Origin: Chlamydiia bacterium
GTDB lineage: Bacteria > Chlamydiota > Chlamydiia > Chlamydiales > JAAKFQ01
DNA length: 28,799 bases
NCBI GenBank assembly: GCA_041688145.1
Contig: JBDNIV010000029.1
Span: 1-28,799, forward strand
Direction: 5' to 3'
In this document: piece after piece, positions 7,311 to 9,791 of the stretch
Layout: each line of letters opens with the position of its first letter
Position numbering within the stretch: the stretch's first letter is position 1
Made by a program: the position numbers and the translations under genes
Notes under the pieces: generated by a model
What the model saw: only the letters and a program-made list of their open reading frames with translations
Told to the model about the DNA's origin: nothing
Database searches by the model: none

Positions 7311-9791
7311 TCACATGACTGAGCAGCACCCATTGTCTCTATCTTCTTTTAAGAGGAGAGGAGATCTTTCGCTTTGGTCTTGAGTGGCGATAGCTTGTTC
7401 TTCTTGAGGCAGCTCTGTGATAGCGCCATGTTGTTTAAGCACCAAGCAAGCCTCTTCTGAGATGTCGGCATCTTGGATTAGGGCCTTTGTTGCTTCTAGG
7501 GATTTTCCTGATCGCCAGATCATTTTCGGTGTATCTTCTTCTAGGTTATACATAGCAAAAGCGTTTTGACCTTCTACAGTAACTATTTTCTCGGGACCCA
7601 AAAAGGTAAAGTAACAAGGATAAATTTTTTCAGAAAAGTGGATTTCTTTTAATAACTTGCCTTTTCTGGAGTCCCAAACGCTGATATGATGCCCATTTGA
7701 ATAAGTAGCTATCTGCCTGCCTTCATCTAGGTATGTCGCTTTGCGAAAACCTTCATATATTTTAGCTATGCTTTTAGGGGGTTTTTGTAATCTGAGCACT
7801 TCTTGTTTTCTTACAAATTCATCGAGGTAAGGATTTCCGGGTTGCAGATGGGTAACTTTACGTTGAGATAAAGGTTTTTTGTCGCCTATTCGAAAAAGCA
7901 TTAAAGTTTCATCATCGCAAAATACTAAAAACTTAGAAGAGTCTTCTAAAGGAACTATAAAGTGAGGAGAAGCCTTATGATCACGTGTGCTGCTATAAGG
8001 TGGAGGCATCATTGTATAGAAGGGGTCATTTATTACGCTTACTGGGCGTTGTTCTTCAAGATTCCAAACGCGCACAGTTTGATCATAACAAGCGGCAATA
8101 ATATGACGGTTATCAGGAGTTATCGCCAACCCTAGTATTTCTGGAGTTTCTCTATGCTCACCTCTGGAATCTGTAATTTTAAATATATGGGTACATTGTT
8201 TAGCGCTTAGGTCGTGGACACAGATACTAGCATCTTTGCTCCCTGTTATGAGTAATCTTCCATTCGAGGAGTTGGTGAAGCAGGAAATGCTGTTTGTATG
8301 GTTATTATCTGAGTATAAGCATTCCTTAGTAGTAGCATCCCATAGATGCATAACTCCACTTGTGTCACCAGTGAAAAATCGATTTTTATCTGGAAGAGAG
8401 CAGATGATGCTAATACTAAAATTATGGGGCTTTGAAGGTAGATTATCTTGGGCCACTTTCCATACAAACGCTTTCTTATAGCTCCCTACAACCATACTAG
8501 GAGTTCCTGTGAGGGGTTGAGCTGCAAGTGGAAAATATGCTAGAAAGGAGGTGCGTATTACTTCCAAAGTTTCTAAATCCCAGATGCGGCTTTCGCAAGT
8601 TGAGCTTAAAGCTAGTAATTGGGTGTCGTTTTTCAAGAAATGTAAGGCGTTAATTTTAAAAGACTGGCGCAACTCCCCATGTTGTTGCAATATCAAAGAC
8701 CTTTCAGCATTAGTTGAGCCTTGTTCACCAAGAATAGCTCGTACTACTACGAGTACTTTAAAGAGAAAAATACGATCTGTTTGTGGAGCTACTGCAATCA
8801 TTTCGCCACTTTGAGAAAAAGAGAGCTGGTGGTTCTGAAAATGAGCCATGGTTTCTTGTGCTAAGCAGCCTCCTGTTTGGATGTCCCAAACGCATAAAAT
8901 GCCCTCTTGCTGAACGCCATAAGAAGCAAGAAGACCTTGAGGAGAAAACGCTAATGTGTACAAGTGCTTGTATGGGGTAGCAAACCTAAAAACTTGCTTG
9001 CCATCATTATAGTTGCGCACAATGATTTCTTGGGAGTTAGTCGCTGCGCCGTTGTTATATCCACTAAGGGCTACCCAGGGGTTAAAGGGATCTAAAGCCA
9101 TTCCATTAATGCCTTCCCAAGGGGTGTCCATTATTTTAACGACTGAGTAATCATTTGCGTTCCAAACCTTAACCCGGTTGTCACTACCTCCAGAAATAAA
9201 CTTGGTCTGATCTGGAGATAGAAGTATCTGGTTTATCGACCCAGCATGTCCTCGAAATTTGTTATGAATAAGTTTAGCTGTTTGAGGATTCCAAACATAA
9301 ATATATCCTTTATTATCCCCGACAATTATCCGTGATCTGACGCTATCAACAGCGATAGCTACTATATTTCCGTCTGTTTCAAAATAGGGAACTTCTCCAA
9401 AATCGATGTTTTGCATATTTGTTCTAGCTAGGCTAGCTCCTCCAAACCAAGTACCTTTTGCGGATACATTAGTGAGGTCAGCATCGTCGAGTTTTGCTTT
9501 GTCAAAGTTTCCTCCGTCAATAATAGCGCCTTTTACGCTGATTCCAGAGAGATCAATTCCTGCAAAAGATTGACCAGCAGCTACGAGTATGGAAAGAGCT
9601 TCCGCTGCTGCCATAGAAATAGTTTTATCTGTTTTAGAGCGGGATACTAGGTCAAAAAGTTGACGAGAGTAATGAGGATCTGCTTTTGCTTTGCAAGCTT
9701 TGGATTGCAAATCAGAGAAGTTCAAATATATAGGGAGCTGTCCAGGGTTCATTTGGCGAATATTTGCTGTGAGTGAGCCAGTAGTGGCCAT
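7311..9791 (-). CDS. Pentapeptide-repeat + WD40-repeat protein with C-terminal CaaX box (candidate effector)
   Basis: Pentapeptide repeats (ADLTN, ASLAR etc.) then many WD repeats (GHAGSINQILLSPDQTKFISGGSDNRVKVWN; HTNSISC...LITGSKDASICVHD; CYDQTVRVWN). Ends GCCSVM. ATG at 9791 has a GAGGA RBS and is preferred over the TTG at 9884. Confidence 0.88.
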   Translation of the reverse strand: MATTGSLTANIRQMNPGQLPIYLNFSDLQSKACKAKADPHYSRQLFDLVSRSKTDKTISMAAAEALSILVAAGQSFAGIDLSGISVKGAIIDGGNFDKAKLDDADLTNVSAKGTWFGGASLARTNMQNIDFGEVPYFETDGNIVAIAVDSVRSRIIVGDNKGYIYVWNPQTAKLIHNKFRGHAGSINQILLSPDQTKFISGGSDNRVKVWNANDYSVVKIMDTPWEGINGMALDPFNPWVALSGYNNGAATNSQEIIVRNYNDGKQVFRFATPYKHLYTLAFSPQGLLASYGVQQEGILCVWDIQTGGCLAQETMAHFQNHQLSFSQSGEMIAVAPQTDRIFLFKVLVVVRAILGEQGSTNAERSLILQQHGELRQSFKINALHFLKNDTQLLALSSTCESRIWDLETLEVIRTSFLAYFPLAAQPLTGTPSMVVGSYKKAFVWKVAQDNLPSKPHNFSISIICSLPDKNRFFTGDTSGVMHLWDATTKECLYSDNNHTNSISCFTNSSNGRLLITGSKDASICVHDLSAKQCTHIFKITDSRGEHRETPEILGLAITPDNRHIIAACYDQTVRVWNLEEQRPVSVINDPFYTMMPPPYSSTRDHKASPHFIVPLEDSSKFLVFCDDETLMLFRIGDKKPLSQRKVTHLQPGNPYLDEFVRKQEVLRLQKPPKSIAKIYEGFRKATYLDEGRQIATYSNGHHISVWDSRKGKLLKEIHFSEKIYPCYFTFLGPEKIVTVEGQNAFAMYNLEEDTPKMIWRSGKSLEATKALIQDADISEEACLVLKQHGAITELPQEEQAIATQDQSERSPLLLKEDRDNGCCSVM

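Follow-up and report, generated by a model that had tools for sequence, protein, structure and literature searches.

A NACHT-less pentapeptide-WD40 protein of a chlamydia-like symbiont with a candidate host lipidation and sorting tail

Introduction

Why does a chlamydial protein end in a sequence that a eukaryotic cell could read as an instruction for lipidation? The question arises from a window of 28,799 nucleotides (the whole stretch of DNA that was analysed) from a freshwater chlamydia-like symbiont, which encodes on its minus strand an 826-residue WD40 protein. The last 19 codons and TGA (7311-7370) read ERSPLLLKEDRDNGCCSVM-stop. This C-terminal end has the form ERSPLL-x8-CCSVM, and thus combines a dileucine-type motif, a CaaX box and an additional cysteine adjacent to the box. 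A methionine at the X position favours farnesyltransferase. Host prenylation of bacterial effectors is already established for Legionella and Salmonella, and the part of the literature available to us gives AnkB and the Pels of Legionella and SifA of Salmonella as precedents. In the open library that we searched, whose coverage did not extend to two published in-silico CaaX lists, we found no paper on host prenylation in chlamydia and no description of CaaX tails on NLR-like WD40 proteins.

Results

The frame of the WD40 gene is open from a TTG at 9884, with the ATG at 9791 as the likely start, in agreement with the database gene call (Table 1). The tail described by the first-pass annotation is present: it is read in frame, and contigs of three public runs (X1, 5885-7431; X3, 7131-7401; X4, 7244-7598) match it at every position; the runs come from three studies, and one of them may be the source sample. 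Among the pieces listed for a further run (X2), none covers the tail. Other runs carry five substitutions in leader codons 2-11, four of them judged residue-changing, and none of the listed runs containing the gene sequence holds RNA data. The CaaX cysteine stands at position -4 from a true C-terminus, with an aliphatic a2 residue and a permissive X. The ERSPLL motif lies 8 residues from the cysteines and outside the conserved core, in a tail whose composition suggests disorder. The low-complexity linker noted in the same annotation was found as well, but it does not follow the propeller directly, since the conserved terminal cap (...LVLKQHGA, residue 790 of 826) intervenes.

Table 1 Features of the WD40 gene and of one neighbouring gene in the window
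Feature	Position	Strand	Basis
NACHT-less cap-pentapeptide-WD40 protein gene, 826 aa, CaaX tail	7311..9791	-	ORF translation; database gene call
Shine-Dalgarno-like AGAGGA	9798..9803	-	read directly, 6 nt 5' of ATG at 9791
Ser/Thr/Asn/Pro/Gln-rich N-terminal leader, candidate type III secretion signal	9717..9791	-	composition; inferred
Helical cap (SK...AAAEAL) and pentapeptide repeats, family signature normally after NACHT	9381..9722	-	alignments; PF00805
WD40 region with degenerate repeats, probably folding into two beta-propellers	7515..9374	-	PF00400 E=1.9e-28, propeller families
Conserved terminal cap ending LVLKQHGA, end of family core	7422..7499	-	family alignment
Acidic low-complexity linker, 17 aa, before dileucine	7371..7421	-	translation
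ERSPLL, fits [DE]xxxL[LI] adaptor-binding consensus	7353..7370	-	translation; consensus as given in the accessible part of PMC5297682
Cys at -5, candidate S-acylation site	7326..7328	-	translation; Cys -5 in 10/19 CaaX-bearing family members
CSVM-stop, CaaX box	7311..7325	-	translation; family profile
506-aa all-helical hydrophobic protein, ends EERQPLM...	4277..5797	-	dileucine-like motif at about 4318-4301

The protein had been taken for a generic WD40 scaffold. Its architecture instead makes it a headless member of the NLR-like NACHT-pentapeptide-WD40 family: a helical cap and pentapeptide repeats (Pfam PF00805, E=1.5e-7 at about 9497-9399) precede the WD40 array, and an LLxQxGA-type cap closes it. 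The cap/pentapeptide part matches proteins from Mycoavidus, Mortierellaceae and gammaproteobacteria. The family head is missing, as the 826 residues contain no P-loop and the cap starts about 24 residues after the start; the 25 Pfam rows that were listed, out of 43, include no NACHT family, in a search that covered 15 of the 23 main ORFs of the window. By its sequence, the protein is therefore a NACHT-less derivative of this family and not an NLR. Only two WD40 repeats exceed 10 bits against the family repeat model, and the length of the region together with Pfam propeller matches in both halves indicates that it probably forms two propellers. Four G066 paralogs end no more than 6 residues beyond the terminal cap. 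Searches outside the family were less specific: the single-sequence AlphaFold model was unusable (mean pLDDT 38.1), the ESM Atlas returned generic WD40/pentapeptide clusters from cyanobacteria and ciliates, and the cap profile, searched against PDB sequences, matched pentapeptide stretches only. A cap-profile search of longer proteins was uninformative, as all 120 matches listed were pentapeptide-repeat proteins without WD40 annotation.

We then compared the tail with what chance would produce in this genome. Cysteine at -4 is found in 14 of 1040 ORFs of at least 100 residues against 13.4 expected, so there is no genome-wide CaaX excess. With the caveat that the motifs were chosen after the tail had been seen, strict CaaX ends number 2 against 0.94 expected per genome, and strict CaaX with a further cysteine at -5 is expected 0.012 times. 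The [DE]xxxL[LI] motif occurs within the last 30 residues of 64 of the 1040 ORFs and [DE]xxPL[LIM] in 5, and shuffling the 31-residue linker yields the generic motif in 14.7% and the proline form in 1.2% of cases. From these counts, the CC-CaaX end is unlikely to be due to chance, while the dileucine alone is not rare. The adjacent 548-residue protein ends in CIAA, which we considered as a second CaaX signal and rejected as probably fortuitous, since two homologues in a genome of the same family lack it. The assembly contains no paralogue or DNA source for the tail, and no second full cap.

An orthologue of the WD40 protein was not found in the databases searched. Its best relatives reach at most 35% identity over the conserved part (18-25% over long stretches), and a search of the one genome from the same family, which is 95% complete, returned nothing. 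The family itself, however, carries C-terminal cysteines recurrently. Among 36 gammaproteobacterial-type members, 19 have a cysteine at -4 and 10 at -5, with 3, 2 and 5 at -6, -7 and -8 and none from -9 to -15. Aliphatic a2 residues are found in 16 of the 19 and terminal methionine in 11. These 19 stem from five of eight genomes, all eight of which encode DotH/IcmK. They are not independent, because a CaaX-bearing protein served as the seed of the sample, which is rich in paralogs and takes 16 of the 19 from two genomes. A sample that was not seeded on CaaX gave cysteine at -4 in 5 of 34 cap-bearing matches (CVIS twice, CFLF, CLIL and CLLT) compared to 4 of 195 other sequences. Cysteine at -4 was absent from all 43 Mycoavidus loci and present in 1 of 15 other chlamydial copies, that one probably a truncation; the remaining chlamydial copies terminate with the core or shortly after it and lack a CaaX box. 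These counts leave out 5 of 99 rows with fewer than 350 residues after the cap, one of them (G096) being the sole P-loop-bearing chlamydial copy, and a 2022-residue frame in G076. The stretches before the family CaaX boxes are neutral or acidic (net -4 to +2), as in the 826-residue protein. A P-loop before the cap is retained in 24 of the 36 gammaproteobacterial-type members, and two copies of this type (L124, 1063 residues; L067, 903 residues) are putatively headless and end in CaaX. Eukaryotic members exist in Mortierellaceae and Cyanophora, and two Lys/Asn/Glu-rich members end in CaaX-like tails.

Quick trees, with the Mycoavidus rows reduced to 14 and then to 4, placed the WD40 protein on a long branch without supported position, so that it could not be linked to a CaaX-bearing clade; chlamydial monophyly was not rejected (p-AU 0.52). 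A phylum-wide search for the DNA pattern ExxPL[LIMF]-CCxxx-TAA/TGA gave matches, mostly noise, in 148 of 401 genomes. Of 37 loci checked (30 returned by the search and 7 chosen as in-frame by visual inspection of the 150 rows on the list, which left out 39), the pattern was in frame at 13, and this genome's match was the only one to end a long ORF.

The dileucine shows a different distribution. It is absent from all 13 gammaproteobacterial-type tails, and no CaaX-bearing relative has one, whereas 5 of 20 Mycoavidus post-core tails contain it against 0.53 in shuffles; four of these five resemble one another in their tails and probably form a single clade. ERSPLL matches the adaptor consensus, and the sorting role previously assigned to it is only moderately supported.

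Dileucines also recur next door. Of 400 genomes from the phylum, 49 encode a member of the family of the 506-residue neighbour. Terminal dileucines are found in 17 of 51 members against 6.2 in shuffles; the 20 more distant members taken by themselves give 3 against 2.05. We regard this protein as supporting context for dileucine mimicry, with a partner role not demonstrated. Its resemblance to the otopetrin helical repeat is weak: the best structural match had a Z-score of 5.7 and an RMSD of 7.8 over 195 aligned residues, and although four otopetrins were in the top 10, this lies below the level that the program regards as meaningful for helical models. Foldseek gave no match at E 0.001 and the ESM Atlas nothing at 0.9 or above. 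The contig also carries genes for NqrA, GreA, YjbH and RecA, with the yjbH-greA order conserved in a same-family genome. A comparison of RecA with PDB sequences did not identify the taxon; we call the genome chlamydial on the strength of the first-pass annotation, a marginal Hc1 match, the long GreA and the gene order.

The genome encodes SctV, SctN and SctJ family proteins (PF00771, 749 bits; TIGR01026, 623 bits; PF01514, 89 bits), all above cut-off with models that also match flagellar genes. DotH was not found in this genome, which is 92% complete. The leader of the WD40 protein has a composition fraction of 0.48, the 97.6th percentile of 923 ORFs. None of 15 long chlamydial copies has a P-loop, and 14 have leader scores of at least 0.36 against a genome median of 0.24. 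The type III genes, together with the leader composition, which is weak evidence, make secretion plausible.

Discussion

We propose, with a probability of roughly 0.6 as to secretion and prenylation, that this NACHT-less family member works inside the eukaryotic host as a secreted double propeller that is farnesylated and S-acylated there. The Ser/Thr-rich leader would replace the NACHT head and target the protein for type III secretion. Host farnesyltransferase would then modify the cysteine of CSVM, followed by cleavage by RCE1 and methylation by ICMT. Since the linker is acidic and offers no polybasic stretch, the adjacent cysteine may be S-acylated and provide the second membrane anchor. 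The propellers would thereby face the cytosol from the surface of the inclusion or of an endomembrane, where they may bind a host protein. The recurrence of such tails in Dot/Icm bacteria lends strong indirect support to this view of the CaaX box and its neighbouring cysteine. For a last step, in which ERSPLL, 8 residues from the lipid anchor, would engage an AP adaptor as a sorting signal and bias the protein towards endosomes or the vacuole, we put the chances at about even.

The tail might instead be a chance or relic extension with an unused CaaX box, brought by an old transfer or by read-through, on a protein that serves as a WD40 binding module within the bacterium or is secreted unlipidated. 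The absence of a genome-wide excess, with about one strict CaaX expected per genome, fits such an account, as do the chlamydial copies that stop at or near the core and the CIAA of the 548-residue neighbour, an indication that chance CaaX-like ends do occur locally. The combination of CC, aliphatic a2 and methionine is nevertheless far rarer than one per genome, and more than half of the family members from Dot/Icm genomes carry a cysteine at -4. A relic linker should also have decayed in a protein so strongly diverged and with genome-like GC (0.411 against 0.414), yet the tail motifs are intact. Between runs the leader varies, and the tail, covered in three of them, does not, although the shallow divergence makes this a weak test. 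We consider a chance or relic tail unlikely, if a contender to be taken seriously. A eukaryotic contaminant or misassembly deserves next to no credence: the eukaryotic members and the Lys/Asn/Glu-rich members with CaaX-like ends lend it some substance, and it is largely refuted by the single intronless frame with a ribosome-binding site and typical GC, by the bacterial genes on the contig with their conserved yjbH-greA order, and by the X1 contig, which joins the tail to the porin gene.

Two further accounts concern function. The chassis is NLR-like in the accessible part of the family literature, and most gammaproteobacterial-type members retain a P-loop, so that the protein could be the sensor module of a STAND/NLR-type defence, working in the bacterial cell with a NACHT partner supplied in trans. 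This is improbable for a protein without a P-loop whose assembly offers neither a paralogue nor a second cap, and the sole PADLOC match covers the WD repeats. To our knowledge, a CaaX box has no use in the bacterial cytoplasm. The protein could also be secreted and lipidated with its second cysteine geranylgeranylated or free. Its CC-x-x-M spacing resembles the ends of Ykt6. The accessible part of PMC12001115 describes farnesyl and geranylgeranyl on the two C-terminal cysteines of Ykt6 and terms the modification unique. The extra cysteines of the family spread over -5 to -8, a better fit to position-tolerant S-acylation, and we rate double prenylation or a free cysteine as very improbable.

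Within the reading of a host-lipidated effector, the headless copies may be injected mimics of prenylated protist NLR-like receptors that soak up ligand or poison assembly, a rather doubtful but consequential idea. Such decoys would have kept the WD40 sensor half and a host-type lipid and sorting tail, and would occupy the same membranes as the host receptors. If so, chlamydiae would deploy NLR decoys through type III secretion and Dot/Icm bacteria the same class through type IV, which would imply that protists possess membrane-anchored NLR immunity. Should host lipidation itself prove right, host prenylation of effectors would reach an environmental chlamydia with type III secretion, and the family would define an effector chassis that recurs among bacteria associated with protists. 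The dileucines in the family of the 506-residue neighbour suggest that symbionts may use host adaptor sorting more widely than recognised.

The closest precedents are Legionella AnkB and Pel/CMP and Salmonella SifA and GtgE, which likewise combine a C-terminal CaaX box, an intracellular bacterium and an injection system. The present protein differs in belonging to another phylum, in carrying WD40 propellers and not F-box/ankyrin or enzyme domains, in having a dileucine within the same 19 residues, and in being known from sequence alone. The family name NACHT-PPR-WD40 comes from bioRxiv 10.1101/2021.12.02.471044, and the family is also touched on in 10.1101/2022.03.16.484565; the accessible parts of these two reports do not mention lipidation tails for it. 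The NACHT-pentapeptide-WD40 proteins of Mycoavidus cysteinexigens and Mortierellomycota share the helical cap, the pentapeptides, the WD40 array and the LLxQ[RH]GA cap, whereas the 826-residue protein has no NACHT or N-terminal solenoid, only a short Ser/Thr-rich leader, and combines degenerate repeats with a CaaX tail that no Mycoavidus locus has. Dileucine effectors are represented by Coxiella CvpA (AP2) and Salmonella SteD (AP1) in the accessible part of PMC9182567. The likeness is that a presumed effector carries a sequence of the [DE]xxxL[LI] type; ERSPLL, in contrast, is canonical, single and beside a candidate lipid anchor, and its adaptor binding is putative. For the host proteins mucolipin-1 and CLN3, the accessible part of PMC5297682 describes endolysosomal sorting in which palmitoylation or a farnesylated CaaX box acts together with an acidic dileucine. 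Both are polytopic membrane proteins, whereas the chlamydial protein is a soluble bacterial propeller predicted to be held at the membrane by lipid only.

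The WD40 protein and its tail

The first-pass annotation had read the last 19 codons and stop of the WD40 gene as a putative lipidation tail, and direct translation of these 60 bases gives ERSPLLLKEDRDNGCCSVM. The frame is open from 9884 on the minus strand, and AGAGGA lies 6 nt upstream of the probable start, an ATG at 9791, from which the product has 826 aa, as in the database gene call. The window spans an entire contig from a bin of 1.275 Mb (92% complete), taken here as an environmental chlamydia on the basis of the first-pass annotation, a marginal Hc1 hit and the gene order. 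The tail recurs without any difference in contigs of three public freshwater runs (three studies; one possibly the source sample). In other runs the 5' allele had diverged, with substitutions concentrated in codons 2-11 and upstream (window 9760-9950), unlike the gene body, which was nearly invariant among the listed differences, at low depth for leader and tail alike.

Homology searches found no close homologues. After the leader, the protein has a helical cap, pentapeptide repeats (PF00805) and then a degenerate WD40 array. Judged by sequence, it corresponds to the C-terminal half of an NLR-like NACHT-pentapeptide-WD40 protein, a family of Mycoavidus and Mortierellaceae (named in bioRxiv 10.1101/2021.12.02.471044; see also 10.1101/2022.03.16.484565), without the NACHT domain. 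Seven of the 400 genomes scanned from the phylum, counting this one, have the full cap. The P-loop is absent from all 15 long copies in three other chlamydial genomes and retained in one shorter copy. Leaders rich in Ser/Thr/Asn/Pro/Gln precede 14 of the 15 (0.36-0.60 versus a genome median of 0.24); that of the WD40 protein scores 0.48, the 97.6th percentile. The terminal cap ends LVLKQHGA at residue 790, and the 36 residues beyond it are an add-on: four paralogs in the chlamydial genome G066 stop within 6 aa of theirs. Headless cap-pentapeptide-WD40 genes that have Ser/Thr-rich leaders and no CaaX form tandem arrays in G066 (L022, L162, L163) and a further chlamydial genome, G055 (L025, L161).

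Features of the window
Feature	Position	Strand	Description
Variable zone	135-12039		Putatively lineage-specific
Two short overlapping ORFs	135-1125	+	No Pfam match
Transporter and enzyme genes	1235-4280		MFS transporter facing PapA/condensation-type acyltransferase and HD-domain hydrolase (Pfam)
506-aa protein	4277-5797	-	ORF; all-helical, hydrophobic, unnamed family; ends EERQPLM...
Tandem repeats	5845-5914		Three exact 23-bp copies between porin and 506-aa genes
C-terminal tail of WD40 protein	7311-7370	-	Last 19 codons and stop
Leader of WD40 protein	first ~24 aa	-	Precedes helical cap
548-aa orphan	10393-12039	+	ORF; hydrophobic stretches; ends CIAA

CaaX ends across the family

In a first, unseeded sample, Cys at -4 (counted from the C-terminus, the CaaX position) was found in 5/34 cap-bearing sequences versus 4/195 others. 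A genome scan supplemented with other chlamydial loci yielded 99 members, 94 of them with at least 350 aa after the cap. Eight gammaproteobacterial-type genomes, all with DotH/IcmK (8/8), contributed 36 members, of which 19 have Cys at -4 and 10 at -5. A CaaX-bearing protein served as seed for the scan and two genomes supply 16 of the 19, so that, counted independently, the 19 amount to something closer to five genomes. Cys occupies -6, -7 and -8 in 3, 2 and 5 of the 36, and -9 to -15 in none. An aliphatic a2 is present in 16 of the 19 and a final Met in 11 (for example CCSLM, CCVII, CVMM); two CaaX-ending copies in these genomes (L124, L067) also appear to lack the head. Cys at -4 was found in 0/43 Mycoavidus loci and 1/15 other chlamydial copies (CVRG, probably truncated). 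On a quick tree the CaaX label changes 11 times, at least 7 of them forced by starred branches, compatible with repeated gain or loss; a single chlamydial clade including the window's copy was not rejected (p-AU 0.52).

In the Dot/Icm-bearing gammaproteobacterium OZ257148.1 (~1.148-1.222 Mb, L056-L066), at least 12 NACHT-pentapeptide-WD40 genes form a tandem array, in which 10 of the counted copies end in CaaX; CAZYYU010000008.1 holds a similar array. A second CaaX-bearing family occurs in the fungal endosymbiont Mycoavidus: ORFs of 1,118-1,230 aa that adjoin NACHT-WD40 genes on the upstream side and end CLVM, CTVM and CIVM (L077:1-3357, L079:473-4165, L089:737-4129).

The dileucine motif and neighbouring genes

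A dileucine occurs in 0/13 gammaproteobacterial-type tails of 12-200 aa and in 5/20 Mycoavidus tails versus 0.53 in shuffles (EARPLL twice, EARSLL, EPRRLL, EPTPLL), most of the five probably from one clade. Among 37 loci checked from a phylum-wide pattern scan, the combined dileucine and CC tail ends a long ORF only in the window's genome.

The 506-aa protein, which has no Pfam match, provides independent context for this dileucine. Its family is present in 49/400 genomes of the phylum and 0/29 scored in family f4. [DE]xxxL[LIM] falls within the last 30 aa of 17 of 51 full-length members versus 6.2 when shuffled (0/2000 as high), counting kin that are not independent: 14 of the closer 31 carry it and 3 of the more distant 20 (2.05 expected). 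Spacers vary, and several other members have PLL-type motifs at either end. The predicted model is confident (pLDDT 89.8) and resembles otopetrin only weakly (Z 5.7, rmsd 7.8). The protein is a candidate effector that would act as a channel or transporter in host membranes and be sorted by AP adaptors. Indels lie near the adjacent tandem repeats in other runs.

Both genes lie in what looks like a lineage-specific variable zone. One 95%-complete genome of the same family keeps the yjbH-greA order with unrelated genes after yjbH; our queries detected no counterpart of the porin, WD40 or 506-aa gene in it. The two short ORFs, the first with a His-rich end and the second acidic, look like a possible nuclease toxin tip with its immunity partner.

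Alternative explanations and proposed mechanism

We favour secretion of the WD40 protein and its prenylation by the host (probability about 0.6). A chance or relic tail is unlikely, though it deserves real weight: Cys at -4 is not enriched in this genome (14/1040 ORFs versus 13.4 expected), and strict CaaX is seen twice versus ~1 expected, the other case being a 201-aa ORF ending CTIS (G000:C3:10588-11193, +). The CIAA of the 548-aa neighbour appears to exemplify chance, since neither of its two weak homologues from the genome of the same family ends that way. Strict CaaX with Cys at -5, calculated post hoc, is expected 0.012 times per genome. Generic dileucines are common (64/1040 C-termini) and the Pro form rare (5/1040); shuffling the linker yields them in 14.7% and 1.2%.

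Two Lys/Asn/Glu-rich members from the unseeded sample also end in CaaX-like tails, which helps to raise the rather doubtful possibility that prenylated copies lacking the head act as decoys of host NLRs anchored in membranes. That the protein is an intrabacterial sensor module seems improbable, double prenylation slightly more so, and contamination very remote.

Host-prenylated effectors as such are known. Among the papers that our searches listed, none reported a chlamydial effector prenylated by the host or described CaaX ends in this protein family, and we do not claim priority in chlamydiae, because in-silico CaaX lists (Table S1 of PMC2916131, covering 20 pathogens and an endosymbiont; a 56-protein screen cited in PMC4951486) fell outside the search. 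PMC13229535, in the portion consulted, lists two WD40 proteins in Hydra chlamydia without CaaX-tail detail, and in PMC3991601 the term appeared in the reference list only.

Under the favoured secretion and prenylation, the protein would be exported via its leader through the type III system, whose core has profile matches in this genome; DotH had no match in the 92%-complete bin. Farnesyltransferase prefers CaaX boxes with X = Met. The host enzyme would modify CSVM, followed by RCE1 and ICMT, which act after CaaX prenylation (PMC13081727; PMC12001115). Because the linker is acidic, acylation of the Cys at -5 would be the likely second anchor, a dual modification like that of SifA (PMC4951486). 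The dileucine, whose function given secretion and prenylation we rate about even, would add AP-dependent sorting, much as a dileucine works together with a lipid in mucolipin-1 and CLN3 (PMC5297682) and as dileucine-type motifs are used by CvpA and SteD (PMC9182567).
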